Made by a program: the position numbers and the translations under genes. Positions 3,395 through 41,332 of a stretch of 64,000 nt of DNA are shown here, piece by piece. Source of the DNA: Escherichia coli (lineage in GTDB: Bacteria; Pseudomonadota; Gammaproteobacteria; Enterobacterales; Enterobacteriaceae). The stretch lies in NCBI RefSeq assembly GCF_030013595.1, contig NZ_CP122768.1, one strand, 5' to 3'. The number at the start of each line of letters is the position of its first letter. Positions within the stretch are counted from its first letter, which is position 1. Under the pieces are notes generated by a model, which was given only the letters and a program-made list of their open reading frames with translations, did no database searches and was not told the origin of the DNA.

Positions 3395-3479
3395 ACTTTC
3401 TCCTTAGCCACTTGTGAAATTTATCGATTCATCCAAATGATATAAGTCTGCGTGGTGCCGTCAAGCCAGTGAGTAAGAT

Positions 3480-3653: not shown

Positions 3654-4343
3654 GTACGGGCGTCCAGCCAGATGAATAAAACGCGCGCAAATATGCGTCA
3701 TTTTTTGATGTGCATCAAGTTTTTTCACCAGTTTGAGAAAAAATCATCAACAGCAACTTGCCCTTATCCATCTTCAGAATAAGTATTATTGCGGATTTTC
3801 TTAACCCGTACTATACACATAGGGGCAATGATAAAAGGTGGCAAAAATGAATGTTTCCAGTAGAACCGTAGTACTGATAAATGTCTTTGCTGCTGTTGGT
3901 TTGTTTACTCTTATCTCTATGAGATTTGGCTGGTTTATTTGATGTAGTGATTTTGCACGCAGCACGTACTGTCAGAGAAATCAGTGCTCTGACAGTACGC
4001 AAGATCATCTCATACTCTCCAGGTTTACAACATTATCCTTAATATTTACTTCTTTTTCCTGACATCTACATTGAAATAAGTAGAAAACATCCCCCTCCTG
4101 TCGTCTATACAGACAGCTTACTGATTCAAAGGGAACCTTGTTTTCACATTTTTCTATCATCAATACTTTAGACGCGCGGGAGTCTATAAATGCTTTATAC
4201 TTTCAGGGAATAAAGTAAATATAAAAAGATGGCGTAAAGTATATGCATGGCAGGATGATTGCAACCTCCTTGATGACGCTGTCCCATTGAAATTGCAAAC
4301 CCCGCACTGGTTATCTTGCCCATTTATCATGCAGAACAGATAA

Positions 4344-5153: not shown

Positions 5154-5375
5154 TGTTAATACTTCTACTTATAAATTATTAGGTTAATAACGATACTCTA
5201 AAGCCTTATGCGAATCAACTATGACAGGATGAAAAATCACCAACATACATTTAGATCATAATAACTGCCTAATTTTTCCGCTAGTTATTAATGTAATCAT
5301 TCTGATACTTAATCACCATTACACTCAGAACCTAAAACGATAGTGGCCGCCCTATAACAGCCACTAACATTTAAC

Positions 5376-6800: not shown

Positions 6801-6821
6801 AGCATATTCCTGTATCAGTGG

Positions 6822-7616
6822 TTATTGACCATTGTCGCCTTCGCGGGTTAGCCACCAGGCCCCCAGGATCGGCAAGGTTGTTACCAACATAACCAGCAGT
6901 GCCACCACGTTAGTTACCGGTACATCACGCGGTCGCCCAAGCTGATTGAGCAACCACAACGGTAACGTTCGTTCATGACCTGCCGTAAAGGTCGTCACGA
7001 TGATTTCATCGAACGACAAGGCAAACGCCAGCATTCCTCCTGCCAGTAACGCCGAACTGAGATTCGGCAACACTACGTAGCGGAAGGTTTGCCAGCCATT
7101 GGCCCCAAGATCCATTGACGCCTCAACCAGACTCCACGAGGTGCGGCGAAAACGGGCGATGACATTGTTAAACACCACAACTACACAAAAAGTCGCATGA
7201 CCGACCACGATGGTGAAAAATCCCGGCTCCAGATTGATGGTTTTAAAGGCGGTTAACAACGCCAGACCAGTGACAATGCCCGGCAGCGCAATGGGCAGCA
7301 GCAGTAACAGCGAAATGGCGTTTTTGCCGAAAAAGTCTCGTCGCCACAGCGCGGCAGCGGCCAGCGTCCCTAACACCAGCGCCATTAATGTCGCCAGCGC
7401 CGCCACTTTAAGTGACAGTGTCACGGCATCAAGAATATCACTACGCTGTGCTGCCACGCTAAACCAGCGCAGCGTCAGGCCCTGCGGTGGAAAACTAAAC
7501 GCCGCACCTTCAGTGTTGAACGCATAGGCGGCGATTATCAGGATGGGAAAATGTAGGAAAACAACGCCGCCCCAGGCCGCCAGTTTGAGGAAAAACGGTG
7601 CGCGTTCAGAGTGCAT
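6822..7616 (-). CDS. ydcV: ABC transporter permease YdcV
   Basis: 264 aa multi-TM permease, conserved operon order ydcSTUV. Confidence 0.85.
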
Positions 7617-8547
7617 CGAACGCTCCCAGACGTTTCACGAACGCCAGGTACAGTGCGATAAGAACAATCGGCACCAGGGTGAATGCCGCCGCCATCGGCA
7701 TATTGCCAATCGCCCCCTGCTGGGAATAAACCATATTGCCGATAAAATATCCTGGCGGGCCAACCAGCTGCGGGACGATAAAATCGCCCAGTGTGAGTGA
7801 GAAGGTAAAGATAGAGCCAGCGGCAATACCAGGGATCGCCAGCGGCAGCACCACATAGCGAAAGGTTTGTCGTGGACGTGCGCCGAGATCAGCTGACGCC
7901 TGCAACAATGACGGCGGCAAACGCTCAAGCGCCGCCTGCACGGGCAGGATCATGAACGGCAGCCAGATATAGAGAAACACCAGAAAGCGCCCCAGCCCGG
8001 AAGTTGACAGCGTATTGCCGCCCACCGCAGGTAATGTAAGGAACGCAGTCAGCAGTGGTTCCAGCCCAAGATGTTGTAAAAACCACTGAGCCACGCCATC
8101 TTTTGCCAGCAATAACGTCCAGGCATAGGCTTTAACAATGTAGCTCGCCCACATCGGCAACATTACCGCAATATAAAAAAACGCTTTCATTTTCCCGCTG
8201 GTATAGCGCGCCATATACCACGCCATTGGAAAAGCCAGAATGGCGCTGGCGATAGTGACTGCCACAGCCATAGTCAGCGTGCGGAGAATGATGTCGTAAT
8301 TCGCCGGATTAAACAGCGCACGGATATTCGCCAGCGTCAGTTCCGGCGTTACCGACATGGTGAAATCGTCAAAGGTATAAAATCCCTGCCATAACAGTGT
8401 CAGCAGCGAGCCGAAATAGACAATGCCAAACCACATTAGCGGGCCAAGCAGCAGTAAAAACAGCCCCAGCCCCGGATTACGCCAGAAGAAACCGGACACC
8501 TTACCCAGACCTGGACGTGAAGGTGATTGCAATACATTCATCGCCAT
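7606..8547 (-). CDS. ydcU: ABC transporter permease YdcU
   Basis: 313 aa multi-TM permease, overlaps ydcV start. Confidence 0.85.
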
Positions 8548-9561
8548 TCACCTCTCCTCAACCAGCGGCACCATCACATCACGCGACCAGGAAACCATCA
8601 CCTGTTGTCCGGGCGTGAGCGTGGCAGGCAGTTCTTCGCCTGTCATATTGGCCTGACTCACAAGCAGTTTTTCACCGCCGTTCAATTTCAGTTCAAAACG
8701 TGTTGCCGCGCCCTGATATTGCACCGCCTGGATCGTGCCATTGGCCTGCAGTTCACCAGGGGTGTTGAGGCGGATATGTTCCGGTCGCAGGGCGAAGCTT
8801 CCCGTCATGCCACAAAGTTTCTCTGCCATCAGTCCATCAAAAACATTCGATGTACCAACGAACCCGGCAACAAACGGCGTGCGCGGGCGCATATAGAGAT
8901 CGCGCGGGGAATCGACCTGCTCAATGCGTCCATTATTGAAAACCGCAACACGATCAGACATCGATAACGCTTCGCCCTGATCGTGGGTAACGAAGATAAA
9001 AGTGATACCGAGAGACTGTTGCAGCTTTTTTAGTTCCAGTTGCATCTGCTCACGCAATTTGAGATCCAGTGCGCCGAGCGGTTCATCCAACAGCAATACG
9101 CGCGGTTCATTCACCAGTGCTCTGGCGATGGCGACTCGCTGGCGCTGACCACCAGAAAGTTGTGACGGTTTGCGTTGCTGAACAAAACCCAGCGCCACTT
9201 TCTCCAGCGCCTCTTGCGCCATCGCATGCCGCTGTTTTTTATTCACGCCTTTGACCATCAGACCATAGGCGACGTTGTCAAGAATCGACATATGCGGAAA
9301 TAGTGCGTAGTCCTGGAAGACAGTATTCACGTCCCGCTCCCACGGTGGCAGATTGCTGGCGGGTTTACCAAAGATAGAGATAGCCCCGCCGGAAAGCTGT
9401 TCGAAGCCAGCAATCAGGCGCAGGCAGGTGGTTTTGCCGGAGCCGGACGGCCCCAGCATAGAGAAGAACTCACCATCTTTTATCGCAATACTGACGCCAT
9501 CTACTGCGCGAACGTCACCGTACAACCGCGAGACGTTGTCAAACTCCACTGCGTACGTCAT
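8548..9561 (-). CDS. ydcT: ABC transporter ATP-binding protein YdcT
   Basis: Walker A GPSGSGKTT, ABC signature LSGGQRQR, Walker B LLLDEP. Confidence 0.9.
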   Translation of the reverse strand: MTYAVEFDNVSRLYGDVRAVDGVSIAIKDGEFFSMLGPSGSGKTTCLRLIAGFEQLSGGAISIFGKPASNLPPWERDVNTVFQDYALFPHMSILDNVAYGLMVKGVNKKQRHAMAQEALEKVALGFVQQRKPSQLSGGQRQRVAIARALVNEPRVLLLDEPLGALDLKLREQMQLELKKLQQSLGITFIFVTHDQGEALSMSDRVAVFNNGRIEQVDSPRDLYMRPRTPFVAGFVGTSNVFDGLMAEKLCGMTGSFALRPEHIRLNTPGELQANGTIQAVQYQGAATRFELKLNGGEKLLVSQANMTGEELPATLTPGQQVMVSWSRDVMVPLVEER

Positions 9562-9578
9562 AAAACACCCCAGCGAAG

Positions 9579-10724
9579 TTAGCGACCGCCCATAATGGCA
9601 ATGTAATCCTGCGTCCAGCGACTGTAGGGAACAAACTTGCCCCCTTCTGCTATAGGCGTTTTCCAGAAGGCGATTTTATCGAAATAGTTAAAACCGTTGG
9701 TTTCACAACCTTTTTCGCCTAATAACGGACTGGCTTTACACCCTTCCGGCACTACCGGTAACGAGCCAAACCAGGCCGCCACATCGCCCTGCACTTTTGG
9801 CGTTAATGACCAGTTCATCCATTTGTAGGCGCAAACCGGATGTTTCGCTTCACTATGTAGCATGGTGGTGTCAGCCCAACCGGTAACGCCCTCTTTCGGG
9901 AATACGGTCGCGACAGGCTGGCCTTCGGCTTTCAGGGCGTTGGCCTGATAGGGCCATGCACTGGAAGCAACCACACCCTCGTTTTTGAAATCGCTCATTT
10001 GCACGGTAGTGTCATGCCAGTAGCGATGGATCAAACTATGTTGATCGCGCAGCACTTTCAGCACCGCCTGGTACTGTTCTTCGGTGAGTTGATACGGATC
10101 GCTGATGCCCAACTGCGGCTGAGTGGCTTTAACGAACAACGCAGCGTCCGCAATGTAGATAGGGCCATCATAAGCCTGGACGCGGCCTTTATTGCTCTTG
10201 CCGTCCGGCAGATTCTGCTCAACAAAAACCACTTGCCAGCTATCCGGCGGCGTCGGGAAGGTTTTAGTGTTGTACATCAGCAGGTTCGGCCCCCATTGGT
10301 AAGGTGTGCCGTAAACTTTGCCGCCAACGTTAAACCAGTCGCCTTTAACCACGCGCGGATCGAGCGCTTTCCAGTTGGGAATCAAGGCAGTATTAATCGG
10401 CTGCACGCGTTTGCCCATAATCAAACGCAGCGAGGCATCGCCAGATGCCGTAACCAGATCGTAACCCCCTTTGGTCATCAGACTGACCATTTCATCGGAA
10501 GTCGCGGCGGTTTTCACATTCACCGCGCAGCCTGTCTCTTTTTCGAATTGCGTTACCCAGTCGTATTGTTTATCAGTTTGTCCGCGTTCGATGTATCCCG
10601 GCCAGGCGATAATATCCAGTCGCCCTTCCGGTTTATCTAAATTGGTAGGCGGTTCGGCGGCGTGAGCGGTCATTATTGTCATGGTGAGCGCACACAGGCT
10701 GCTGCGGGCAAATGTCTTGCTCAT
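9579..10724 (-). CDS. ydcS: periplasmic substrate-binding protein YdcS (polyamine-type SBP)
   Basis: 381 aa with N-terminal signal peptide; operon position. Confidence 0.85.
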   Translation of the reverse strand: MSKTFARSSLCALTMTIMTAHAAEPPTNLDKPEGRLDIIAWPGYIERGQTDKQYDWVTQFEKETGCAVNVKTAATSDEMVSLMTKGGYDLVTASGDASLRLIMGKRVQPINTALIPNWKALDPRVVKGDWFNVGGKVYGTPYQWGPNLLMYNTKTFPTPPDSWQVVFVEQNLPDGKSNKGRVQAYDGPIYIADAALFVKATQPQLGISDPYQLTEEQYQAVLKVLRDQHSLIHRYWHDTTVQMSDFKNEGVVASSAWPYQANALKAEGQPVATVFPKEGVTGWADTTMLHSEAKHPVCAYKWMNWSLTPKVQGDVAAWFGSLPVVPEGCKASPLLGEKGCETNGFNYFDKIAFWKTPIAEGGKFVPYSRWTQDYIAIMGGR

Positions 10725-10968
10725 AAGGTCTTACTCCTGTCGTAATTAATTGTTCAGCCGCCGTGCCGTAAAAATATCTCCTTGTTTAACCATAGACGGC
10801 GGCTTGCAGGCACACCTTCGCCCCTGAGAAAATTTAATCAGGTTGTGAGCTACCGTGCATTATGCCGTCTGTAAGGTTATCTTCTGGAGTATAGACAAGG
10901 AGTTAGGAAATATGACTGCTATTCGAAATTCATATTACTTAACCTGAGAGGAATTAAATTAAACGCTA

Positions 10969-12375
10969 TTACAGCCGTTCTTGAATAAGTTTGCCTAATT
11001 GTTTAACCGCCTGTTCTTCACGTTCTCCCCACTGCCACGCGGTATTAAAACGGAAAAAACGTGACCAGTTTTCACCGGTAGAAAACATTTTACCCGGCGC
11101 AATACTGATATGATGCGCCAGTGCCGCCAGGCTTAATTCGCCCGCATCTAACGGTTCGGGAAGCTCCAGCCAGAGAAAATAACCGCTGTCATTATGATGA
11201 ATTTTCACTTCCGCAGGCAGATAACGCAGCAGTGCTTGCCAGGCACGTTGTTTACGTTCCGCAAGCTGGCGACGCAGGCGACGAAGATGGGCGTCGTATC
11301 GGCGCGTGGAAAGGTAATCCACCAGAGCAAGCTGCATCGGTGAGCTGGTGGAAAGCGTACTCATCAACTGCAAGCGTTGAATTTTACGTGCATGTTTTCC
11401 GGCGGCGACCCAACCAATACGAAAACCAGGCACCAGACATTTCGAAAACGAAGAGCAATGCAAAACACCATCGTGGTGATCCCACGCTTTCGCAGGCAGC
11501 GGTTTTTCCCGTCCAAAATAAAGTTCGCTGTAAACGTCATCTTCAATCAGCGTTACGTTGTACTGATTGAGCAACGCTACCAGCCGCGCTTTTTTCTGCG
11601 GCGTTAAGGTAAATCCGAGTGGATTCTGGCTATTAGTCATCAGCCAGCACGCTTTCACTGGATACTCCTGCAACGCCAGTTCCAGCGCCTTGAGATCAAT
11701 CCCTTCTTTAACGTCCGTCGCCACCGATAACGCCTTCAGCCGTAACCGCTCCAGCGCCTGCAACGCGCCGTAGAAACAAGGATTCTCTACTATCACCCAA
11801 TCGCCCGGTTCAGTGACCGCTTGTAAACTGAGGTTTAATGCCTCTAACGCCCCGGCGGTAATGACAATTTCATCAGGAGAAATAGTGATGCCCTGTAAGG
11901 CATAGCGACGAGCAATAGCCTGACGCAGTTCTGCGTTTCCTGGCGGTAAGTTTTCAATCACGCTCATCGCCGTGGCGGTTTTGCTTACCTGCGCCAGCGA
12001 GCGGTTTAGTTGTTGGAGGGGGAAAAGTCGCGGGTCGGGAAAGGCCGAGGCAAACGGAACTACCGACGGATCGCGACTGGCCTGCAACATATCAAAAATA
12101 TAGGTGTTGATATCGACTGCTTCATCTCGAGTGACAGGAATGACTGGCGCTTTCGGCATTTTTATTGCCTGTGGCGCAACGTAATAACCCGACTGCGGTC
12201 GAGCGATAATATGTCCCTGACTTTCGAGCAACTGATAGGCATGGCTGACAGTCATAAAGCTCATGCCAGAAAGCGCCACCTGGTCACGCAACGAAGGCAA
12301 ACGATCGCCAGGTTGCCAGATACCCGACGCAATCTGCTCGCGTAATTGTTCTGCAAGCTGCTGGTATTTTTTCAT
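10969..12375 (-). CDS. ydcR: MocR/GntR-family regulator with fused aminotransferase domain YdcR
   Basis: 468 aa; N-terminal wHTH plus PLP-aminotransferase-like domain. Confidence 0.85.
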   Translation of the reverse strand: MKKYQQLAEQLREQIASGIWQPGDRLPSLRDQVALSGMSFMTVSHAYQLLESQGHIIARPQSGYYVAPQAIKMPKAPVIPVTRDEAVDINTYIFDMLQASRDPSVVPFASAFPDPRLFPLQQLNRSLAQVSKTATAMSVIENLPPGNAELRQAIARRYALQGITISPDEIVITAGALEALNLSLQAVTEPGDWVIVENPCFYGALQALERLRLKALSVATDVKEGIDLKALELALQEYPVKACWLMTNSQNPLGFTLTPQKKARLVALLNQYNVTLIEDDVYSELYFGREKPLPAKAWDHHDGVLHCSSFSKCLVPGFRIGWVAAGKHARKIQRLQLMSTLSTSSPMQLALVDYLSTRRYDAHLRRLRRQLAERKQRAWQALLRYLPAEVKIHHNDSGYFLWLELPEPLDAGELSLAALAHHISIAPGKMFSTGENWSRFFRFNTAWQWGEREEQAVKQLGKLIQERL

Positions 12376-12453
12376 TATCGAATCGTAATTATGTGCAGAT
12401 GATTCGGCAGTCTATATCAGTTGTTAAAAATGACAACTTTTCGTTAACTGTAA

Positions 12454-12567
<114 letters not shown>

Positions 12568-12609
12568 CCCTAATATAATGCCCCCACAATAACACGAGGG
12601 GGTACAACA

Positions 12610-12996
12610 ATGTTCAATATCATGATTCGTAAATTTGGCGAGATGACTTTCGAGAAAGCTGGTGTTGCTCGTACCGAAGAAGAAGCAATGGCCTTAGTTC
12701 TGGTAGCACTGAGATCATCACCTGAGATTATCGACGCTGAATATGTAGCTGCTGAGGGTGAGATTAAAGAGATTAAAGCGGTGGCTAAGGAATTAGGTGT
12801 TAAAGGTTTCCGTAAGCTGAGATTGAATCGTGAGACTTATGTAATTGGACAGCAAGGACAATACCTAGATGAGAATACCGTGATTGTTCTACTGAATAAG
12901 ATTACCCGCTACGGTTGGAAGATTGAGCAATATAAAACGTGTTTCGAATTATACGAAAAAGGTTTGCTGGATACTCTGACCATCGTTCGCGCTTAA
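12610..12996 (+). CDS. hypothetical protein (prophage attL-proximal)
   Basis: 128 aa ORF with RBS GAGGGGG upstream; no recognisable family. Confidence 0.5.
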   Translation: MFNIMIRKFGEMTFEKAGVARTEEEAMALVLVALRSSPEIIDAEYVAAEGEIKEIKAVAKELGVKGFRKLRLNRETYVIGQQGQYLDENTVIVLLNKITRYGWKIEQYKTCFELYEKGLLDTLTIVRA

Positions 12997-28845: not shown

Positions 28846-29352
28846 TTAAGAGATTTTCAAAGTCTGCTTAGTGCCAGTCTTCTTAATGTTGGTAAGGAAA
28901 GCAGCCGGAGGATTGCTTAACCAGTAATAATGAAAACCACTTTGCATACTGTTATAAGGAACAGTGACAGCAGCACCACCCAAATTAACGGTTATATTCC
29001 CCGCTCTACCGTTCTGGAGATATACAGCCATAGTAGGAGTACCACCATTGAATTGACCAACGATAACGCCAATCAGACGCCCTACGCCCACGTTTTCGGG
29101 GTTCTCCATAGATCCTTTACCGCGCATGTCAGTTACTGGATAGTTTGAAGCAGTTACACCCCAGTTATTACCCAATGAAGTAGACCACGCAGCAGTAGCT
29201 ACAACCGTATCCATACCACGACCACACATCGCGCTCATATTACCAGGTACACCAACTTTTAACGCTTGCATAGCCTCACGCATCCATCTCTTGCCAGTTA
29301 CAGAAACAGCCGATGATCCGACCCAGCCGGGCTTATTAACGACATTTGCCAT
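28846..29352 (-). CDS. hypothetical tail protein
   Basis: 168 aa, RBS GGAG before the ATG, tail module context. Confidence 0.45.
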   Translation of the reverse strand: MANVVNKPGWVGSSAVSVTGKRWMREAMQALKVGVPGNMSAMCGRGMDTVVATAAWSTSLGNNWGVTASNYPVTDMRGKGSMENPENVGVGRLIGVIVGQFNGGTPTMAVYLQNGRAGNITVNLGGAAVTVPYNSMQSGFHYYWLSNPPAAFLTNIKKTGTKQTLKIS

Positions 29353-29526: not shown

Positions 29527-30003
29527 TCATCCGGCAGTATTGAAGATTTCCTGTTTCAGCGGTTTGCCGTCCACTGCAAAGGTAAACTCTTTAGTTACCA
29601 CTTCTTCATCGCCACCGTTCATAGCAACTTTAGAAATAAAGCCGTTGAAAGCGGTGCGAATACCAGTCTGTTTTCCGGCGTCAACATAATACTCTATTTT
29701 GATTTGTACTCTTGTGCCGTCTTCGGCAGCTTTGATCAATTTTTCGTGGACACTATCCCCGGGGATGTAATTCACCGTAAGAGTCAGATCAGGAACATTC
29801 AGTTTACCTACTAGTTTACGGTTATACTGAGAAGAGAAGGATTTAACTTCTACAGTACCGCGCTCGATACCAGTTTCAGGAAAACCAGCACACTCTTTAA
29901 TTTCTTCATAGCCCTCATGGTTGAGAGTGGTGTTAGTGGTATCGGCGTGATAGAACAGACTTACCAGACCACCAGTAAAAATATCTTTAAATTGCTGAGA
30001 CAT
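29527..30003 (-). CDS. putative major tail (tube) protein
   Basis: 158 aa, followed by a strong terminator as expected for an abundant structural protein; assignment by size and context only. Confidence 0.45.
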   Translation of the reverse strand: MSQQFKDIFTGGLVSLFYHADTTNTTLNHEGYEEIKECAGFPETGIERGTVEVKSFSSQYNRKLVGKLNVPDLTLTVNYIPGDSVHEKLIKAAEDGTRVQIKIEYYVDAGKQTGIRTAFNGFISKVAMNGGDEEVVTKEFTFAVDGKPLKQEIFNTAG

Positions 30004-30058: not shown

Positions 30059-33000
30059 TTATTTAGTTGCTTTGAGTTCGGCAATTTCTTTCTGTAATGC
30101 TTCGATCTGGGCTTTATATTTGGCGTCCATTTCCTGAATAGCTTTAATAATCAAGGCATTAACAGCGGAGTTAGAAATAGTCTTAATTGCTTCTGGATTT
30201 TCTGGATCTTCGGTGGATTGAATACCTACTGCTTCCGGCAACACTTCTTCCAGATCCTGAGCAATAATACCTACTTCGCGTTTAATCACTGTGTCATCAG
30301 AAAGAGATTTAACTTTATCGTAGGTGTAGACTTTCAGGGAGTTTACTTTCTCTAATGCGCCGTCCTGTAATTCTTCCTTGTTGATTTTAAGGCGAGCATC
30401 AGAACGAATGTACACATCGTTAAAGCTACCGTTTCTGGATGCGCTTAAATCACCAGCCGCGTTAAAGTCAAACGTTGCATCGTGTACGTGCATACGCACC
30501 ATAGCATTTCCGATAGTACCGCTAGGAACATGTACACCCATTGCTGCGATATGATATTTACCTTGATGGGTTGCTTTCCATACGTTATGAGCGGAATCGG
30601 TTGATTGTTGACAGTCGACCTGAATACCAGAAGCACGATCACGCCAGCTAGTCCAACTACCACCAGCAACGCTACCACGAATAAGACCATTACCGCCACC
30701 GGATACAGTGCCCGTTTCAAGGTGAATCATCTTACCGCCGAATTTCCAGACTTCGGTTTGTTTCTCACCACGGAAGCGAATAACACCAGCGTCATCGCAA
30801 TACATCAAGCCCAACTCTAAACCGTTTGGATCTCTAAACCAGATGTGCTTATTGCCAGCGCGTTTAAACGTAATATCAGCACCAGTTGTTGTGATATTGC
30901 TAGCAACGTTTAGACTACCCGCCATAGAGAACAGAATAGGTCCAGTGCCACCCTGAGTACGTTCAGTATACCAGTGATAACTTGTAGCATCCTTACATTC
31001 AAAAACCTGTTTGCGTTGCTCGTTACCCCATGTATGGAGACTAAATTGCGAAGAAGAACCACGGTTAGCATCAAATGCAATTTCACCAGATTCTACACGT
31101 ACAAAGCCTCTAAAACGTGTTGTTATGTTACCAGTACCCATAGCACGTTCAGTGATAAAATGTGCGCCCTGACTGTCTTCAATCTGTAGGATGTTATCGC
31201 GACCGTTATTGCTATCGCCCCAATGGTTAAACCGGAAGTAATCGCGGGAATTTAATCGCCCAGCGTCGAAAGTCAAATGCCCTTTCTTAATGTAAACGTC
31301 ATTACTAAAGCGAGCGGCTTTGCTTGCACGTTCTAAGACTAATGCACCTTCGTTACCATCACCACCCAAAGTAACATTACCGCTACCAAGATGGTAAATG
31401 AACGGACGATAGCCGTTCCAACTACCAAGTTTATCATTTTCGGCAGTAGACAGAAGATATACGTTTTGACCATCATTACGCCAGAATGCACCATAATTAC
31501 CGTAGATCATGCGGTAAGCGTCGCTATTCATTGAGATGAATTGAGCGTTAGTATAAACTCGTTTTGTGTTACCGGTTGCAAGTTCGATCTGTCCGTCTAT
31601 GTGGTGACGAATAGAAGTACCACCTACATCACTATACCATTCAAAAACGTTAGTATCAGCATTACCATAACCGATCCACCCTTGACGGGTAATAGATCCA
31701 GTCCGATTATCTTGAAACGTAATATGGTTGGATTGACCAGCAGGACGCCGCAAGGTAATAACATTACTACCGCCACCCAACATCATTCGACCAGAAAGAA
31801 TATTACCTTTATGAGTCCCAGCAATAGAGCTACTAGATTCAACGGTTAGAATCTCCTGAGCATCTGTACTACCCGTGGCGAGTCGATAAGTAGAACCCTG
31901 AACCGTCTCATGCCAGATCATTTCATTATAGTTACTGCGGAATTTACGAATATATTTCCGACCAGTACCCCTATCATTACTCAAGTGAACAATATCATAA
32001 CTATTTTGTGTGTTATCGTCAAAACTCAACACACCTCGTTTGTTTTCGGTGTTGAAAAGAGTAATGATGCGCCCATCAATAACACCAACAGAAGGTTTAA
32101 TTAACGTGGCTTCCGGTGTATCGTGAACAGTCAGATTAACATAAACACTTTTACCAAATTCAACAATAACGTTATCAGTGTAACGCTGATATTTCACATA
32201 AATGTCATAGTTATCACCGGATGTATTGACGGCAAATACATCAAAATCTTTGACGGTATTTCGACGATATGCAACTACGTTAAGTCCTTTAGGTCTATCG
32301 TTACCACTACGGAGAAGAATTTCTACTACATCAACTTGGTCATATGCCGTAACGTTGTAACCATTACCACCATGAATACGGAAAAACACACTACGCCCGT
32401 TTTGTGGAATTGTTGCGGTTGCCAATTTGAAATATGCAGATACGTTTTCGCTAGAATTGGGAACAGACATAACGACGTTTTTAACAAACATCTTATCAAC
32501 TTCGGCTTTGGTGTATGCACCAATCTCGCCAGGAGTCGGCTTATCACCTTCGTGATACATCTTATAGCTAAAGTTCTTCTGTCCTTCTCTATCAAAACCA
32601 TAGGTTTCAACACGAGATCCACCAGACGCATAACGGAAAGTAAATCCGCGACCGTGAGCTTTACCGGCAGAGTGAGGAACGTTAAGAGTTAGATCCATGA
32701 GTCCATCTTGACCATTGGTACGGAAAGCACCAAAGTAGTTAAGATCTCTCGCTGTCTGGTCTTCCAAATAGTTAGCTGTTTTGGTTAACAGATACCCGCC
32801 ATGCTTAGTGTTGGTATTCTTCTTGATGTAAAGAGCATCGTTACTACCTTCAATACCATCAATTCGACGGTTAGCGGCTGCGATCGCTGAATCAGTATCA
32901 GTTTTGTTTTTGTCAACCTTTGCGTTAATAGCGGTATGGTTGCTATTCACCGTCCCTGTAAGGTTACTGATTTTAGTATCAACATCTTTCTTGTTGTCGG

Positions 33001-33520
33001 AAACGACCTTTTCAATCGCTGTTTTGTTAGCTGCAACCGTGCTAGTTAAGCTAGAAATTTTGTTATCTGCATCGGTTTTATTTGCAGTAACAGTTTTAGT
33101 CAAGTTGCTAACGTTGGTGTTAGTGGTATTAACTTTGTTGTTAATCGCGGTGTTATTGTCATTAACCGTCGTGGTTAAAGCTGCGATTTTATTGTCCGCA
33201 TCTCGTTTATTATTTGCTACAGTAGTTTCTATAGCTGATTTGTTAGATGCAACTGTCCCCGTAAGGTTATTGATCTTAGTATCAGCATCGGTTTTATTTG
33301 CCGCGATAGTCGCATCAGTAGTTTTCTTGTTATTGTCTACTTTTGTGTTTAAAGCATTATGACTTTCAGGAGAAACACTTACTTGAACTACTGCGTTATT
33401 TTTATCTTTGGTATAAATTACATGGTCTGCCATCTGAATAGCGATTTCACCGACCTGTAATTGTTCCGGCGTTGGCTTTTTACCAGCCGTCTGTGTGCGT
33501 TTAAATTGGATCGACTGCAT
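30059..33520 (-). CDS. side tail fiber with tandem repeats and C-terminal intramolecular chaperone (S74-like) domain
   Basis: 1153 aa; conserved fiber N-terminus (KPTPEQLQVGEIAI...YTKD), about five 28-29 aa repeats (ANKTDADTKINNLTGTV...), C-terminal DVYIRSDARLK ... GIIAQDLEEVLPEAV chaperone signature. Confidence 0.75.
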   Translation of the reverse strand: MQSIQFKRTQTAGKKPTPEQLQVGEIAIQMADHVIYTKDKNNAVVQVSVSPESHNALNTKVDNNKKTTDATIAANKTDADTKINNLTGTVASNKSAIETTVANNKRDADNKIAALTTTVNDNNTAINNKVNTTNTNVSNLTKTVTANKTDADNKISSLTSTVAANKTAIEKVVSDNKKDVDTKISNLTGTVNSNHTAINAKVDKNKTDTDSAIAAANRRIDGIEGSNDALYIKKNTNTKHGGYLLTKTANYLEDQTARDLNYFGAFRTNGQDGLMDLTLNVPHSAGKAHGRGFTFRYASGGSRVETYGFDREGQKNFSYKMYHEGDKPTPGEIGAYTKAEVDKMFVKNVVMSVPNSSENVSAYFKLATATIPQNGRSVFFRIHGGNGYNVTAYDQVDVVEILLRSGNDRPKGLNVVAYRRNTVKDFDVFAVNTSGDNYDIYVKYQRYTDNVIVEFGKSVYVNLTVHDTPEATLIKPSVGVIDGRIITLFNTENKRGVLSFDDNTQNSYDIVHLSNDRGTGRKYIRKFRSNYNEMIWHETVQGSTYRLATGSTDAQEILTVESSSSIAGTHKGNILSGRMMLGGGSNVITLRRPAGQSNHITFQDNRTGSITRQGWIGYGNADTNVFEWYSDVGGTSIRHHIDGQIELATGNTKRVYTNAQFISMNSDAYRMIYGNYGAFWRNDGQNVYLLSTAENDKLGSWNGYRPFIYHLGSGNVTLGGDGNEGALVLERASKAARFSNDVYIKKGHLTFDAGRLNSRDYFRFNHWGDSNNGRDNILQIEDSQGAHFITERAMGTGNITTRFRGFVRVESGEIAFDANRGSSSQFSLHTWGNEQRKQVFECKDATSYHWYTERTQGGTGPILFSMAGSLNVASNITTTGADITFKRAGNKHIWFRDPNGLELGLMYCDDAGVIRFRGEKQTEVWKFGGKMIHLETGTVSGGGNGLIRGSVAGGSWTSWRDRASGIQVDCQQSTDSAHNVWKATHQGKYHIAAMGVHVPSGTIGNAMVRMHVHDATFDFNAAGDLSASRNGSFNDVYIRSDARLKINKEELQDGALEKVNSLKVYTYDKVKSLSDDTVIKREVGIIAQDLEEVLPEAVGIQSTEDPENPEAIKTISNSAVNALIIKAIQEMDAKYKAQIEALQKEIAELKATK

Positions 33521-33597: not shown

Positions 33598-34431
33598 TTA
33601 ATACTCACCGAAATCGATCCGGTCCGTCTTAGCCACTGCGCCAATTTCGGCTGGCGTAGGCTTCTCGTTTGTTGTATAGACTTTAATCCATTCCGATTTT
33701 CCGTTGTCCTGAATATTTCGTACCCGCAAACGTGGAGCACCGGAAGTATTACACGTTAATTGCCATGCGCCATGCTCATTAGCTTGAAGATGAATTAACG
33801 ATGTATCAGCACCATAAGGGTTAGTGCTAGCCGTTCCTTTGTAGGTTACAAAGCGGTTTCCTGTCAGAGATTCACTATCAATAGGTCCGGTGAATGGGCT
33901 AACGCCTGAGCCTACGCCAAAATCCCCTTGTCGGATGAGTTTTCCCTCGGTCGCTATACCCCTTGCTAGAATCCCGCCATCTGGTTCAAGTTTAAATTCC
34001 AGTGTTACAGCTTTGTTATCACTACCACGGGTTTTATGTGATGTGACGTAAGCATCGAATATACAAAAGTACCCTGTGTTAGCAGCACTATAGCCAGAGT
34101 TCACAACATAGAACATACGGAAGCGTAAAGGTGTTTTATCCTCTACCGCTTTCATCAACATTGCTTGATGTTCGTCATCCAGAACACGGTTTAACGTGAG
34201 TGTCGTCGGTTCCAGTCTACGATAACCAGCAAGTTTCCCCGTAGCGTCCTGATCGTACTCTTCCAGAGTTTCAATCTCTGTGGATTCTGTTAGCGTAGGG
34301 AATGCTGCGACGTTCTCAATAGAACTAAAGCTAGGATCGAAAAAGTCGACCTGATTGTCTAGCTGGTTAGAGATCGACACTTCAACATGCGATCCCGTAA
34401 AAATATCTAAGTTATCTTGTGTAATATTCAT
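33598..34431 (-). CDS. hypothetical structural protein
   Basis: 277 aa; C-terminal EKPTPAEIGAV motif echoes the fiber N-terminus. Confidence 0.4.
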   Translation of the reverse strand: MNITQDNLDIFTGSHVEVSISNQLDNQVDFFDPSFSSIENVAAFPTLTESTEIETLEEYDQDATGKLAGYRRLEPTTLTLNRVLDDEHQAMLMKAVEDKTPLRFRMFYVVNSGYSAANTGYFCIFDAYVTSHKTRGSDNKAVTLEFKLEPDGGILARGIATEGKLIRQGDFGVGSGVSPFTGPIDSESLTGNRFVTYKGTASTNPYGADTSLIHLQANEHGAWQLTCNTSGAPRLRVRNIQDNGKSEWIKVYTTNEKPTPAEIGAVAKTDRIDFGEY

Positions 34432-35137: not shown

Positions 35138-35167
35138 AGTTACCCCCTTTATGGAGTATTTACATAC

Positions 35168-35196
35168 AAAAAAGCCCCACCGTTAGGCAGGGCTAA
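35168..35196 (-). terminator. rho-independent terminator (copy 2)
   Basis: minus strand AGCCCTGCC-TAAC-GGTGGGGCT followed by TTTTTT. Confidence 0.5.
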
Positions 35197-35202
35197 TTAT
35201 TA

Positions 35203-35286
35203 TTTTGCTTTCGGTGGACGTCCCACCTTTTTAGCTGTGGCTTTCGCCGTAACTACCGGAATTTCTTCCGGCAATTCTTCGTTATT
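35203..35286 (-). other. in-frame post-TGA extension ORF (28 codons) downstream of capsid gene
   Basis: NNEELPEEIPVVTAKATAKKVGRPPKAK after the TGA; shares NEELP and VVTAKATAK with the extension at 29404..29526. Confidence 0.3.
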
Positions 35287-37293
35287 TCACTCTTCGCCAA
35301 TTTTCAGAACTTTCAGAGCTTCCGGCTGTGCTACAACGTAGTCCAAATCTACAAAGATACGAGGCACTACCGCACCACGGTCACGGTATGTAGTTAGATC
35401 CATATCCAGTTCCAGACCGCCCCACTCACCGATGGTAATACCGGAGAAGTCACCCAGAACGATGTGGTCTGCCGGAATAACGCCAGAAGTAACTACTTCG
35501 TAACCAGCCAGTTTGCCGTTTTCGATGATATAACCGGAAACGCCGTTATCTTTCAGGGTAGATTCCAGTTCGGCAGCAGTTGCACCGCTCATTGCAAACT
35601 TGATCGCCTGAGCAGGAACGCCAGCGTCGGTCAGTGCTGCAATTTCTTTCAGGAAGTCTTTATAAGAGAAAGCAGCTTTCTTGGTAACGCGGCTAGCGTC
35701 TACCAGTTGCTTAACCAGACCAGCCGGACCACGAGCATTTTCTTTATCAGACAGAATCAGTTGTTCCAGTTTGATACGAACAGCTTTGTTAATGTGATCA
35801 GTGATCAGGGTAGCGATGCCCGGAACGGTTTTCAGCGACTGACGGCTGATCGGGTTGCCACCAGCAAAAGTTTTCGGAGACAGTTTCACGTTCGCAAATT
35901 CAGCTTTGCTTTCCGGTGCAGCACCGTTTTCATCAACGAAGCCGAAAGCGTCAACGCTGGAAGCGGTCATTTTTGGAATAGCGGTCGGGGAGTTCAAGCC
36001 ACTGTAAACAGTCACACCCAGACGACCCAGACACGAAGCAGGAAGCAGCATTTCGATGTAGGATTCAGTCATCAGTTTTTCGTCAGTGATAGCGGTCAGG
36101 TCGGCTTTGGTGTTACCAGCAGAAGCAGCACGCAGAGCAGCAGCCGGAACGAATACAGAGCCACCACGAGCAGCACGACCACGCTGCATAGTTGCAGTAG
36201 CAGCCATTGCGGAATATTCAGCTTCGTTAGCGCCGAGCACGTCGCCATCTACCAGGGAGCGGATTACGTTATTAAGATCGAAAGTTTTTTCCATGATTTG
36301 TTCCTTATTAATTTGTTCGTTATTACGTTGAGCATTGGTAATGTTATTTAGTGCCTTAGTGCGGAATGCTTCCGGCGTCATGTCTTTAATTGCCAATGCG
36401 CGTGCTAATTCAGAGTCATCAATATTTAGTTCGCGTGCAATTTCGCGAATTTCTAATTCGTCTTCTTCGGAACGTTCAGCCACTTCCTCGGTTTTTTCTT
36501 CTTCAACCGGAGCGGCTTCACGTTCTTCTTTTACTTCTTCTGTTTCCCGAACAGTTGAACTATCATCATCAACACTTTCAGGATGTTCAGCGTCTTTTCC
36601 GTCTTCGAGATTTTCATCTTCTTTATTCTCTTCAACTTGGCGCTCTTGAGTTTCTTCAACTTCCGGTTCTTTATTTTCTTCTACCGGAGTTTCTTCAACC
36701 TGAGCGGCTTCTTGTTCTTCTTTGATTTCTTCGATTTGTTCTTTAGTCATATCGCGTTTAGCCCCCAAATTAACTGTGATAGTATTTAGAGAGCGATTTA
36801 AACCGACCGTATCGTCTGCGGGCACCGACACCCATGAAATCTCGTGAGGAATCCATTTAGAAACAATGAGTTGCGATTTAGCGTAGTCGATGTGATATTC
36901 TTTAATGTCATAACCGACAGAAATTTTTTCCATCGTACCTTCAATGACTTTATTGCGAATATCATTAGCCAAAGTGCCATGCTTAGAGAATCTAACGGTC
37001 GCACGGCCTACGTTATCCGCATCGATTCGAGCGTTACAAACGACACCAATGTGATTATCGAAATTGTGATTGAACAGCAACGGAGCGTTATTATTCAGAC
37101 GAGACAGATCAACCGCTTCCGGTGTATGTACCAGAATTTCATCTAATACCACCATTTCTTGATTTTGCTCATCCCAAAATTGGCGCTGATAAGGCTGTGT
37201 ACTTGAGAAAGCAATTTCAAATTCGTATTGATCGTTATGCCCTTCATTAATAACTCCACCGTAACCGTTAAGATCGCGGCGAAATTTAAGCAT
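35287..37293 (-). CDS. prohead protease - scaffold - major capsid protein fusion
   Basis: 668 aa; N-terminal protease-like domain, central Glu-rich acidic linker (scaffold/delta-like), C-terminal HK97-like capsid region; directly downstream of portal. Confidence 0.65.
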   Translation of the reverse strand: MLKFRRDLNGYGGVINEGHNDQYEFEIAFSSTQPYQRQFWDEQNQEMVVLDEILVHTPEAVDLSRLNNNAPLLFNHNFDNHIGVVCNARIDADNVGRATVRFSKHGTLANDIRNKVIEGTMEKISVGYDIKEYHIDYAKSQLIVSKWIPHEISWVSVPADDTVGLNRSLNTITVNLGAKRDMTKEQIEEIKEEQEAAQVEETPVEENKEPEVEETQERQVEENKEDENLEDGKDAEHPESVDDDSSTVRETEEVKEEREAAPVEEEKTEEVAERSEEDELEIREIARELNIDDSELARALAIKDMTPEAFRTKALNNITNAQRNNEQINKEQIMEKTFDLNNVIRSLVDGDVLGANEAEYSAMAATATMQRGRAARGGSVFVPAAALRAASAGNTKADLTAITDEKLMTESYIEMLLPASCLGRLGVTVYSGLNSPTAIPKMTASSVDAFGFVDENGAAPESKAEFANVKLSPKTFAGGNPISRQSLKTVPGIATLITDHINKAVRIKLEQLILSDKENARGPAGLVKQLVDASRVTKKAAFSYKDFLKEIAALTDAGVPAQAIKFAMSGATAAELESTLKDNGVSGYIIENGKLAGYEVVTSGVIPADHIVLGDFSGITIGEWGGLELDMDLTTYRDRGAVVPRIFVDLDYVVAQPEALKVLKIGEE

Positions 37294-37338
37294 TTAATCA
37301 CCTTTAATTAATTGGGGGCATTGCGCCCCCGTTGGTTA

Positions 37339-38850
37339 TTAGGGATCGGCTGGGGAATTTTTTTCTTCACCCTCGCCATCAACGATAATATTTAGTGCGC
37401 TCTTTTCGGCTTGAATCTCTGAGAATACTTTTTCAGGATCATCACCACGTTCAAGAATAACGGCAGTACGTGATTTAAGTCCTTTATCAATTAAAGCAAT
37501 CTCGGCGCTTACGTCTTTAAATGGATCGACGGATTCAAAACGAGGACGAATAATAGTAGTGTTGTCGATAATATGCGGAATTGCAGTAATACGAATCGGA
37601 ACAATACCACGCGCGGAATAATGGCGTAGATATGCTTCGAAAATTGGCAATACCACTGTTTCAATCAATTTGTTTTGCAGTGCTTTAACTCGTGTGCGCT
37701 GGGTTAATTCACCGAAACGTGCGGCTGAGTAGTTGATCTGGCTAGTATCACCAGTCAAGCCCTGTTTAAACACGCCTAAGCCCATTGATACGCTAGTAAA
37801 CATCGCATCATTGAAGCTGTTAAAGTCATCACCGCTTTGCGTCGCCTGGATGCTCTTGATCGTTGCCCCTTCCGGCAATTCCTGAATAGTACCCGGTGCA
37901 AAATCCTGTACTACTTCCGGCGCTTGATATTGTTCATCCTCTTCACCAGTATCAAAATCGTCACCAGAATCTTTCGGACGTTCGATAAAGCCCATAGAAC
38001 TAGCCGCAATACGTTTCTGGACGATCGCAGTTTCGCGGAATGCGTCTTGATGTGCGATATCCTTAATCACTGGCAGGAAATCAGTCACACCACGCAGGGA
38101 TTCAGACGCAAGTGGTTGATAATAATGGAATACTTGCGAAGCATCGACGCGATAGTTATCACCTGTGTAAGTCTGAGTCAGTAGGTTGATTTTACGAAAC
38201 CAATATGCAACAGGGCGCATTGTTTCTACGTCATACTCGATCCCCTGATAGATAGCACGTTCTTTGCTTATTTCACGGTTTAGCGACCAGTCGCACTTAT
38301 CAGCAGACAGGATGGAAACATTTAACTCATTGTTTTCTTTGGTTAAAACGATGAAGCACTCACCACCCATAACGCGCTCACGTTCAGCCATTACCAGCAG
38401 TTCACGGAAGTTAAAGCGACCGTTACGAGAGAAGCGTTTAGCGTTCTGCGCCCACTTCCAGAAAGCATTCTCGATCTGCTTATTCAGTGCGCTATCAAGT
38501 TTGCCATTTGATTTAACGATTGACGGCTTCGGATCTAGGCCAGTACCTACCACCATATCGGTGATGTATTGCGTGTAGCGACTGCCAACGGAAGTGTTTA
38601 AGGCCAGAGTACGACCCTGATCATAAAGGCGCTCACCGTTCGATTTGAGAGCCTTATTGAAGGTTCCTGTAATGGTGTCTTGTTGAAGTGATCCATCAAT
38701 ACGATCACCAACCAGTCCTAAACTACGAGTCGCCAGAGATTTCTGGTATCTTTCTATAGATTTGTCGATGAAAATTTTTGGTTGTTGCTGGCGGTGATTA
38801 GTTTTAACTGGAGTTTCTACCGCCTTTTTGCGTCGAAAAAGATTAAACAT
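37339..38850 (-). CDS. portal protein
   Basis: 503 aa, size and position between terminase and capsid. Confidence 0.65.
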   Translation of the reverse strand: MFNLFRRKKAVETPVKTNHRQQQPKIFIDKSIERYQKSLATRSLGLVGDRIDGSLQQDTITGTFNKALKSNGERLYDQGRTLALNTSVGSRYTQYITDMVVGTGLDPKPSIVKSNGKLDSALNKQIENAFWKWAQNAKRFSRNGRFNFRELLVMAERERVMGGECFIVLTKENNELNVSILSADKCDWSLNREISKERAIYQGIEYDVETMRPVAYWFRKINLLTQTYTGDNYRVDASQVFHYYQPLASESLRGVTDFLPVIKDIAHQDAFRETAIVQKRIAASSMGFIERPKDSGDDFDTGEEDEQYQAPEVVQDFAPGTIQELPEGATIKSIQATQSGDDFNSFNDAMFTSVSMGLGVFKQGLTGDTSQINYSAARFGELTQRTRVKALQNKLIETVVLPIFEAYLRHYSARGIVPIRITAIPHIIDNTTIIRPRFESVDPFKDVSAEIALIDKGLKSRTAVILERGDDPEKVFSEIQAEKSALNIIVDGEGEEKNSPADP

Positions 38851-39427: not shown

Positions 39428-41332
39428 TTAGAACGATGTTACCCAGCTACGGCCTCTATTTGGGCGTCTGACGATGTTTTGACGTTGTGGTCGTGTGATT
39501 GGCTTAGTTTCTTCGATTTGCTCGTCAGATTGCGATTTAGGAGCTTCTACAGGTTCTTCTGGTTCACGGTTCAAACTATCTTTGATGGCTTCGAGTTTTT
39601 CCCATGACATTTTATTGAGTACATGACGAGAAGCAGCATAGGAATAAGCCAGGCAGTCCAACGCTTCGTTTCGTGTTTGTCCAACTTTTACCCAACGTGT
39701 GGTATTACCCTGCCGTTTCAACTGTTCAGAAAGCAATTGCTCGCAATAGTCATCAGGAACGTCACCAATCTGGAAGACAGTGTGAGGATCGCCATCTCTC
39801 AAGTTCCGGTTAATCATTTCACGGATCATCGTTTTAAGGTTGTTTACGCCCAGAATTTTAAGGGTAAAACCACCCGTTCTTGTGTCTTTTACCGGAAGGA
39901 TTGGTGCATCAACATTGCTTGCGCCTTTAATGGCGGTTAGATTTTGCCACCGACTACAGAATCGATAGATCACGTTTGTAGCTCGTCCGTTCGATGAGTC
40001 CACGAAAGCAGATAACATCGGGATTCGTTCACCGGATCGGGTATAGAATTTAGCTTTCAGGAAGTTGTAAAGCTGGTTATATGCTGGTGATTCGTGGCGT
40101 TCGCAGTTCACATCATAGAATGATCGGTGATCAACTACGCATAGCCCTTTACGAGAAATACCCAGCAAGGTAGATTCCAGACGGTCTTTTTGCTGGTCAA
40201 CTCCACCTACCAGAGCCAGTACATCATCAGGAATATTGTCTAGGCTAATATCAGTTTTCAGCGTTTCTAATTCGTCGGCTGTGCGGTCTTCGTTAAGATC
40301 ATCGAAGGTTTCACCGAGGACTGTATTGTAGAACGTTGCCAGGGACATATTCGCGTAGCTATCAGCAAAGTCCACCACACACGCACGGATAGAACTAAAC
40401 GGAGACATAAGGCGGTTAGCATGAAAACCGATTACTTCCGCGTTTGGTTCGGTGGCGACCCATTCTCCCTGTCCAACAGCACGTAGGCGATCACCCTCGG
40501 TCCAATCGGTTTCACATTCAGGGCAACGGTAAACGGCTGTATCTGGGTTGGGTAATGATTTACCGTTAATCGTATGCCAATCGAAATGTACGTTACTCCA
40601 TTCCATTACGTGCTTGTGTCCGCAATGCTGGCAAACGACATGATATTTTCTCTTATCCGAGAGTTCCCATTGTTGGTTAATCGCCCCATCACGAGCGGTT
40701 GGAGTGGAAGCAATTACGATCCTTGCATCTTCCCCGAAAGTGGTTGCGCGTTGTTCCGCTAGTTGGATCGGGTTCCCTTCGTCTGACTCATCAGCCGCAT
40801 CAACTTCATCAAGAATAATCAAAGGGAGTGTTTTACCGCGAAGATGTGACGGACTATTCAACGACATGAAATACATAAACGATCCGTTACGAAGCTGAAT
40901 AATCGATGAGTTGTTAACGGCATTGCGATCTGATTTGTCGGTGATCATCGCCTTTAATTCTGGTGTTGCCTCTAATACTGGCTTCACCTTACCAGCGATC
41001 CAAGAATTTAGTTCTCTAACGTTACTTTGCAACACCCCAATATTAGTAGGGTTACTCGCGATCCGATGGAAGATAATTCCGTTAAGAATCATGGTCTTAC
41101 CCAACTGTGCCGAACATTTAAACACAATTTTTCTACGGTCTTCGGTGATCGCGTCCATCATTCCACGTTGGAAGGGATGCAATTTAATTAGCGATCCGGC
41201 TTTAACACCATCGGTTGCAACTACATTAGCCTCTACCCATTCGCTAGGTTTCATCGTTTTAGGTGGGCGAATTGCCGCAGAGATATTTTTAAGAATCTTT
41301 TTTAATTTTGCCTTGTTCGAAATCAGTTTCAT
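39428..41332 (-). CDS. terminase large subunit (GpA-like)
   Basis: 634 aa; Walker A-like FKCSAQLGKTMILNG, acidic DE-rich nuclease region at C-terminus. Confidence 0.8.
   Translation of the reverse strand: MKLISNKAKLKKILKNISAAIRPPKTMKPSEWVEANVVATDGVKAGSLIKLHPFQRGMMDAITEDRRKIVFKCSAQLGKTMILNGIIFHRIASNPTNIGVLQSNVRELNSWIAGKVKPVLEATPELKAMITDKSDRNAVNNSSIIQLRNGSFMYFMSLNSPSHLRGKTLPLIILDEVDAADESDEGNPIQLAEQRATTFGEDARIVIASTPTARDGAINQQWELSDKRKYHVVCQHCGHKHVMEWSNVHFDWHTINGKSLPNPDTAVYRCPECETDWTEGDRLRAVGQGEWVATEPNAEVIGFHANRLMSPFSSIRACVVDFADSYANMSLATFYNTVLGETFDDLNEDRTADELETLKTDISLDNIPDDVLALVGGVDQQKDRLESTLLGISRKGLCVVDHRSFYDVNCERHESPAYNQLYNFLKAKFYTRSGERIPMLSAFVDSSNGRATNVIYRFCSRWQNLTAIKGASNVDAPILPVKDTRTGGFTLKILGVNNLKTMIREMINRNLRDGDPHTVFQIGDVPDDYCEQLLSEQLKRQGNTTRWVKVGQTRNEALDCLAYSYAASRHVLNKMSWEKLEAIKDSLNREPEEPVEAPKSQSDEQIEETKPITRPQRQNIVRRPNRGRSWVTSF

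Follow-up and report, generated by a model that had tools for sequence, protein, structure and literature searches.

The protease and the capsid protein of phage HK97 are the products of two genes, gp4 and gp5. Packaging of the protease occurs through its own C-terminal tail and is sub-stoichiometric, and gp5 carries a removable helical delta domain directly before the capsid fold. In the herpesvirus UL26/UL26.5 and lambda gpC/Nu3 systems, an internal start additionally gives rise to a nested scaffold free of protease; the protease family of lambda gpC is a different one. Minor capsid forms with a C-terminal extension are known from several phages and are produced by UGA read-through (Qbeta A1), by -1 frameshifting (T7/T3 10B) or by +1 frameshifting (Cps of Listeria phage PSA). 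To our knowledge, UGA read-through at the 3' end of a capsid gene has not been described for any tailed dsDNA phage.

The joining of protease and capsid protein in one chain has already been named in database records and in papers. The term 'capsid and protease fusion' is routinely used to annotate actinobacteriophages (PMC6606914), and the 'major capsid and protease fusion protein' of SEA-PHAGES is of the same kind as the protein studied here. Among cultured phages, the same fusion is carried by R4C, Rhodobacter phage RcCronus, RcRhea, phiHAP-1, VP882 and the Xanthomonas FoX phages, as well as by Murka (where it is called 'major capsid protein and protease'), by ECO1230-10-like coliphages and by Burkholderia phage Mica. 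We analyzed a window of 64,000 nucleotides from an Escherichia coli genome (contig NZ_CP122768.1), in which an earlier note had pointed out a protein of this type.

Genomic context and distribution of the fusion

The 668-aa single ORF is present exactly as the earlier note had described it (35287..37293, on the complementary strand, as are all features given below). The complete CDS starts at an ATG (position 37293), located 4 nt downstream of a Shine-Dalgarno sequence, AGGTGA (37298..37303), recognized by direct reading of the sequence, and ends at a TGA stop (35287-35289). The encoded polypeptide, of 73.5 kDa and pI 4.6, comprises in order a protease, a tether, a proposed scaffold and a capsid region. 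The head module consists of a gpA-type large terminase gene (39428-41332), a gene for a 164-aa protein, a lambda-family portal gene (37339-38850) and the 668-aa ORF. The last two are separated by a gap of 45 nt, and in the cultured-phage fusions the gene likewise directly follows the portal gene. The genes on the 3' side code for a head-tail attachment-like protein of 96 aa, a protein of 156 aa and two tail-tube-like proteins, and further for a long tail fibre with its adhesin, a tape measure protein and a distal tail protein. Searches with Pfam and PHROG profiles revealed no second protease or scaffold gene in the head or tail module, which bears out the statement that no stand-alone gene of either kind lies between portal and capsid.

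The G+C content is about 42% inside the element and about 50% in its flanks. Because of this contrast and of the homology matches, the element carrying the ORF is identified as an E. coli prophage. It is known only as a prophage: a nucleotide search of a phage collection gave no match to this element, whereas among 5426 complete E. coli genomes 54 contain prophage DNA at 80-99% identity, with at least 80% of the query covered in 43 of them.

The earlier note had regarded such fusions as uncommon, and here the data contradict it. The protein matches PHROG 617 from end to end (aa 23-664 against positions 26-622 of a 626-position profile, E 8e-90), and it also matches PHROG 4523, which is annotated 'major head and protease protein'. 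Members of this family resemble the query in domain order, in being a single chain and in full-length homology. In a homologue library clustered at 50% identity, the query matched 423 clusters at E<1e-30; with the threshold at E<1e-10, the number of matching clusters was 2989. The lengths of the best 150 clusters are nearly all between 570 and 700 aa, and 150 of 151 representatives reach at least 550 aa. When representatives were scanned with Pfam, Phage_capsid was detected in 73 of 75 and S78 in 59 of 75 (E<=0.001). The fusions of cultured phages share 27-31% identity with the query over 68-78% of its length. NCBI already lists the exact 668-aa protein, where it is named 'phage major capsid protein' and carries precomputed annotations of the two Pfam domains. 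The fusion is thus real, common and already catalogued, and most members of a very large phage family normally have this architecture in a single chain; the description given in the earlier note was correct, for a protein that is ordinary and of a known kind.

Two apparent natural splits were considered and rejected. A 297-aa 'stand-alone protease' relative (P0150) proved to be a copy truncated by an insertion sequence, and the split copy of strain FXCREC043 is caused by an IS1 insertion.

The protease domain, the tether and the helical region

The N-terminal domain (aa 21-165, 36799..37233) matches Pfam Peptidase_S78 (PF04586) over aa 40-162 with a score of 39.1 bits (cut-off 21); both this score and that of Phage_capsid exceed the Pfam gathering thresholds. 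In an AlphaFold2 (AF2) model of the N-terminal domain the pLDDT values are above 90, and the top Foldseek match of this model is T4 gp21, with a probability of 0.99 and marginal E-values (best 9e-3). A profile search of the PDB with the sequence of the domain returned only noise, and the protease fold is therefore demonstrated through structure comparison. Alignment with HK97 gp4 by hhalign was weak overall (probability 8%, E 0.004), with the motifs in exact register: LLFNH76 faces FFNH65, ISVGY (containing Ser125) faces MSVGF (containing Ser114), and HEISWVSVPAD faces REISVCTFPAN. Despite the low overall probability of this alignment, His76, Ser125 and Glu151 are thereby placed opposite H65, S114 and E141 of gp4, of which His65 and Ser114 are the catalytic pair.

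Conservation was assessed in alignments of the query with 150 representatives of the clustered library (151 sequences). None of the alignments shows any variation at His76, Ser125 or Glu151, in up to 151 representatives sharing about 25-45% identity. At Glu52 and Gly83 conservation is complete or almost complete (150/151 in the largest set), and Tyr128 is found in 149 of 151. His76 (codon 37066..37068) is consequently the putative catalytic histidine, Ser125 (36919..36921) the putative nucleophile, and Glu151 (36841..36843), an invariant acidic residue within the motif E-x-S-x-V-x-x-P-A-D, a candidate for the third active-site residue. By these comparisons the domain is a serine protease of the HK97 gp4 type (S78 in MEROPS and Pfam), with a herpesvirus-assemblin or T4 gp21-like fold. 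The earlier note's protease-like reading of this region, which it had made dependent on finding such a fold, is supported by Pfam, by AF2 with Foldseek, and by the invariant His/Ser pair.

The center of the protein is as rich in glutamate as had been noticed, with 34% Glu, 8% Asp and a net charge of -37 between aa 181 and 300. Two distinct regions can be recognized here. The first is an acidic tether (aa 169-270, 36484..36789; 11.8 kDa, pI 4.1), predicted to be disordered save for one short helix (aa 184-196) in a full-length AF2 model built from 100 sequences (mean pLDDT 82). It is the least conserved part of the protein, the gap frequency among the 151 relatives averaging 0.54, and both its length and its sequence differ widely from one family member to another. 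Counted from R167 to E275, the linker measures 12 to 149 aa in these relatives, with a median of 53. That of the query is 107 aa long, about twice the family median, and with 38% Asp+Glu it ranks 14th of 151 in acidity, so that the E. coli lineage stands out from the rest of the fusion family by a tether that is both long and among the most acidic. Weak tandem repeats are visible at 36629-36741 and fit with a tether growing by duplication.

The second region (aa 271-390, 36124..36483) is predicted with pLDDT values of 74-96 and contains confident helices at aa 276-288, 293-301, 307-336, 340-349 and 355-370. Its conserved columns include E275, R278, I282, G304, F310, E331, S339, E357 and E359, and further S361, G372, G377, P383 and R388. 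Since the Glu-rich stretch is hypervariable and predicted to be disordered and the helical block is conserved, we read the former as a lineage-specific, expandable spacer or tether rather than as the scaffold proper, and the latter (aa ~271-390) as the more likely scaffold candidate, resembling a delta domain. The earlier note was thus right about the extreme glutamate content, whereas the scaffold role that it gave to the Glu-rich center is better placed in the adjacent helices.

Capsid domain, predicted cleavage and assembly

The C-terminal part of the protein (aa 408-668, 35290..36072) was correctly taken for an HK97-like capsid domain. Pfam Phage_capsid (PF05065) matches aa 440-665 (E 1e-25), and a sequence search of the PDB gave a single match, 8gta_A (E 4e-24), which Foldseek also identified (E 7e-19) and which is the capsid of roseophage vB_DshS-R4C. 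After R4C, the Foldseek matches were the capsids of phiXacJX1, RcGTA, SaPI1, HK97, D3 and T5, with E-values from 7e-19 to 1e-11 and target TM scores of 0.6-0.75 for R4C, RcGTA and HK97. Alignment of the capsid part with HK97 gp5 by hhalign reached a probability of 96%. In the AF2 model, aa 408-668 adopt the HK97 fold with its N-arm, E-loop and P and A domains, preceded by a hinge of low confidence (aa 394-407). By its sequence matches and predicted structure this part is an HK97-fold capsid protein, and homology to the solved R4C capsid points to a role in the shell. The position of the cross-linking Lys169 of HK97 is occupied in the query by Ala459 (hhalign), and chainmail cross-linking of the HK97 type is therefore not expected in this capsid.

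The R4C structure also bears on the junction between scaffold and capsid regions (aa 391-407, 36073..36123; modelled with low confidence), in which the maturation cleavage is predicted to occur. Gene 006 of R4C encodes a 629-aa fusion with 28% identity to the query over the full length, protease included (E 1e-45). The deposited chain, 8gta_A, consists of 268 aa corresponding to residues 362-629 of this protein; the N-terminal 361 residues are absent. Its first residue is equivalent to query aa ~399 in a multiple alignment or aa ~404 in a BLAST alignment, and both positions fall inside the AF2 hinge. The R4C paper contains no mention of a protease or of cleavage and no N-terminal data, so that the 268-aa extent may reflect what could be modelled rather than a measured N-terminus. 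The start of the R4C chain is consistent with processing and does not prove it. Literature searches on experimental N-termini in the fusion family, on phiXacJX1 and on fusions of the HK97 delta domain returned nothing directly relevant, and no experimental work on the present protein or on close relatives of it came to light.

The comparisons above establish the domain identities, their order and the invariance of His76, Ser125 and Glu151. In our view the ORF very probably encodes a self-processing head polyprotein of a siphovirus-type prophage, made of an S78 protease, an acidic tether, a helical scaffold and an HK97-fold capsid protein. By analogy with the HK97 gp4/gp5 and herpesvirus UL26 pathways, the chains would form a procapsid together, starting from the lambda-type portal, with a shell built by the capsid domains. 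The scaffold, tether and protease parts would point inwards, with one protease per subunit (1:1 stoichiometry), the helical segment serving as internal scaffold and the tether retaining the protease in the interior. Closure of the shell would crowd the proteases locally and thereby activate them, and cleavage in trans would then take place at the hinge, near aa ~395-405. The approximately 400 N-terminal residues would be degraded to fragments that exit the shell, leaving a mature shell protein of about 28 kDa, and the shell would expand upon DNA packaging. Cleavage at the hinge would give a mature product of 28.0-28.6 kDa (about 265-270 aa) from the 73.5-kDa precursor, the proteolytic activity and the cleavage site being predictions as well.

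Such a pathway would share with HK97 the protease family, as seen from the aligned His/Ser motif, the capsid fold, and a helical scaffold segment immediately N-terminal of the capsid fold, whose removal is established for HK97 gp5 and proposed here for the query. It would differ in that the HK97 protease and capsid protein come from two genes, whereas here the protease is covalently tethered to each capsid subunit. In contrast to the query, the herpesvirus UL26-type and lambda gpC/Nu3 systems have the capsid protein as a separate polypeptide.

Alternatively, the gene might give rise to two products, in the manner of lambda C/Nu3 or herpesvirus UL26/UL26.5: the full fusion, and a capsid protein that starts at Met334 and has no protease, the protease then being present on only a minority of subunits. 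An in-frame ATG does exist at this position (36292..36294), with TAAGGA 7 nt upstream, and a 1:1 ratio of protease to shell protein is far above that of HK97. However, Met334 lies within a lineage-specific insertion of three residues, which is a gap in 127-131 of the 151 relatives, and a product initiated there would be without the conserved helices that span aa 276-336. Internal initiation at Met334 was accordingly rejected as a family feature, and for the present gene we consider the second product unlikely and the ATG of little importance.

We give still less weight to the idea of a degenerate pseudo-protease at the N-terminus, contributing only scaffold mass to a head that matures without cleavage or with the help of a host or other phage protease. 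The modest S78 score of the query (39 bits) and the detection of S78 at E<=0.001 in only 59 of the 75 family representatives could be taken in this sense. Yet strict invariance of His76, Ser125 and Glu151 across 151 representatives at about 25-45% identity is not expected of a dead enzyme; these residues align with the catalytic pair of HK97 gp4, the module contains no other protease gene, and the first 361 residues are missing from the virion chain of R4C, all of which makes this idea very improbable. Finally, HK97 has two separate adjacent genes and split versions occur in some genomes, but the suspicion that the single ORF is an artefact, due to a sequencing error or to a pseudogene fusion of a protease-scaffold gene with a capsid gene, is already refuted by the comparative data, as the frame is unbroken in at least 43 complete E. 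coli genomes and in hundreds of 50%-identity clusters (570-700 aa) and the split copies are due to IS1 or IS3-type insertions.

If the self-processing polyprotein is the correct reading, the protein found in virions should be of about 28 kDa and not of 73.5 kDa. The RefSeq name, 'phage major capsid (family) protein', hides the predicted maturation-protease and scaffold functions, and the annotation has a bearing on virion proteomics, on studies of capsid-sensing defence and on which constructs are chosen for structural work. The fusion family also offers a test case for how a protease covalently tethered at 1:1 stays silent until the shell closes.

The reading frame beyond the capsid-gene TGA

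A more unusual feature than the fusion is the conserved reading frame that follows the TGA of the capsid gene. In the window, 28 sense codons continue in frame after the stop (35203..35286), encoding the candidate read-through extension NNEELPEEIPVVTAKATAKKVGRPPKAK. An 11-bp hairpin with a GAAA loop (35251..35276; z -3.8) begins 10 nt after the TGA, tandem TAA TAA stops close the frame (35197..35202), and a strong intrinsic terminator with a 9-bp stem and a T-run follows directly (35166..35194).

We compared 24 loci of the E. coli type, comprising the window, 18 E. coli chromosomal loci and five IMG/VR contigs; the first 19 of these sequences represent 11 distinct nucleotide versions. The stop is TGA-A in all 24. 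Frame 0 remains open for 27, 28, 42, 43 or 44 codons after it, all length changes being multiples of three, and it is always closed by TAATAA, while the other two frames hold 1-7 stops. The predicted extension, of 27-44 aa, looks disordered, first acidic and proline-rich and then ending in a basic tail rich in Lys and Ala. Its pN/pS is about 0.4-1.0, as estimated from very few sites. The hairpin of the window is shared by loci with the same type of sequence; relatives of the long type have a different one, located 23 nt after the TGA and with a GAUUU loop. Both E. coli extension types thus possess a stable hairpin soon after the TGA, unlike in sequence and distance. A scan of the post-TGA region with Rfam gave nothing near threshold.

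More distant relatives were also inspected. A locus whose capsid protein is 42% identical (L028) has TGA-A followed by the in-frame sequence NNEESPEEIEPLPVVTAKATAKKAGRPSKTAK. At another (L027, 43% identity), the stop is TGA-T and frame 0 is closed, and A_AAA_AAG in frame 0 ends two codons before the stop; a hairpin (-18.2 kcal/mol) follows after a spacer of 7 nt, and the -1 frame encodes VSVIPPVTDGDGEVSVKKAKKAKAE and stops just ahead of a terminator. No match to this frameshift-type relative was found in a search of E. coli genomes. Short Lys/Ala-rich tails are encoded constitutively at three further loci (L011, L037 and L038). The more distant members of the fusion family lack the extension, in contrast to the E. 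coli lineage with its TGA-A and conserved continuation.

Two other explanations of the frame were rejected. Selenocysteine at the TGA is very unlikely, the GAAA and GAUUU loops being unlike the E. coli SECIS loop and the Rfam scan being blank. An independent small ORF is not supported either, since no ATG, GTG or TTG is conserved; where the window has a TTG, locus L019 has CTG.

The earlier note had called this gene a hotspot of non-standard expression. The conserved, open, in-frame continuation in the 24 loci and in L028 agrees with this, while expression of the extension is a prediction. Our tentative reading, which we place just short of probable, is that the TGA may be a programmed recoding site, read through by few ribosomes so that a tail of 27-44 residues would be added to a few capsid subunits per head. 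Insertion of Trp at UGA-A would most simply account for such read-through. Relatives appear to reach an equivalent tail by other means, either a -1 frameshift (L027) or constitutive encoding. A literature search for read-through in the capsid genes of tailed phages found no precedent, which limits this reading, as do the pN/pS values and the blank Rfam scan. Recoding at the point where the capsid gene ends gives a short additional C-terminal segment in Qbeta A1, T7/T3 10B and PSA Cps, and the present locus is a candidate, seen in sequence, for recoding of this kind. If true, the arrangement would be a counterpart of Qbeta A1 and T7 10B in tailed dsDNA phages, with two recoding mechanisms leading to the same capsid appendage. 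If the frame is translated, it would provide a simple and testable example of a stop codon being read through in a tailed phage of E. coli, for which the frameshifting relative would serve as an evolutionary control. Read-through with Trp at the UGA would yield a product larger by about 3.2 kDa and the tryptic junction peptide IGEE-W-NNEELPEEIPVVTAK.

Open frame past the stop codon of the fused capsid gene

The window's fused protease-capsid gene, which encodes the 668-aa query protein, ends at a TGA stop with A as the next base, and beyond this stop the reading frame stays open up to a closing TAATAA (window 35197-35289, minus strand). Such a frame-0 extension, of 27-44 codons and likewise ending at TAATAA, was found in the window and in the homologous loci L001-L005, L013-L025, L028 and L032-L036. 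The frame is retained in at least 13 distinct sequence versions, whose indels are exclusively of 3n nucleotides, and it is present too in a relative of 42% identity. The post-TGA frame is a candidate for programmed read-through, which would yield a C-terminally extended minor form of the capsid protein.

Possible alternative tails and a small ORF in relatives

On a Logan contig (ERR4405785, locus L027) whose capsid protein is 43% identical to the query, positions 2476-2575 carry a canonical -1 slippery heptamer, A_AAA_AAG, in frame 0, which ends two codons 5' of the stop. Downstream of the heptamer, a 7-nt spacer precedes a hairpin of -18.2 kcal/mol, and the -1 frame offers 25 open codons, VSVIPPVTDGDGEVSVKKAKKAKAE, ending at the terminator. 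This tail resembles that of the window and would be reached by another recoding route. In an IMG/VR contig (L039, positions 3389-3470; 38% identity) the capsid gene stops at TAA, and the -1 frame runs on as RKAKAKAKAKAETAE to end just 5' of the terminator. The canonical heptamer is absent here, with GAA AAA C only; the -1 frame is a possible third variant of the tail.

The capsid gene of L006 (PQ671644.1, Escherichia phage DCP80, positions 858-12765) is followed on its 3' side by a small ORF of 21 codons, MSLGAEALDAAPVKKSKSASG, with its own Shine-Dalgarno sequence. This module, composed of a lambda-type terminase, a portal and a fused protease-capsid 43% identical to the query, lies in a record classified as a 141-kb Straboviridae (T4-like) phage; either chimeric assembly or an uncommon kind of mosaicism could account for this.

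Possible signals, natural disruptions and cross-linking

An in-frame ATG (Met334; window 36292-36294, minus strand), with TAAGGA 7 nt upstream, could be the start of a 335-aa protease-free product; Met334 falls within a lineage-specific insertion. The 45-nt gap from the portal stop to the Shine-Dalgarno sequence of the fusion gene contains a G+C-rich hairpin, GGGGGCGCAATGCCCCC (window 37314-37330). On the coding strand no T-run goes with it, and it might serve to stabilise or process the mRNA.

The fusion gene also occurs in naturally knocked-out form. In L005 (NZ_CP195866.1) the linker region is interrupted by IS1A, and because of this insertion the halves appear separately in RefSeq, as 'HK97 family phage prohead protease' and 'phage major capsid protein'. 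At L008-L010, the loci of the truncated relative P0150, IS3-type insertions cut off the related gene after aa ~297.

Lys169 of HK97 gp5, which donates the chainmail cross-link, aligns with Ala459 in the query (window 35917-35919) and with Thr in the family consensus, so that, judging from this alignment, HK97-type covalent cross-linking would not be expected. No decoration-protein gene was seen adjoining the capsid gene in the window.

Order of the tail genes

A gene for a 1153-aa T4 gp37-like long tail fibre (window 30059-33520) sits between two tail-tube-like paralogues of PHROG 158, of 277 aa (33598-34431, minus strand) and 158 aa (29527-30003, minus strand), and a gp38-like adhesin gene (28846-29352) comes after. 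Tail modules of the siphovirus type do not usually show this order. The paralogue of 277 aa bears a fibre-like extension at its C-terminal end.
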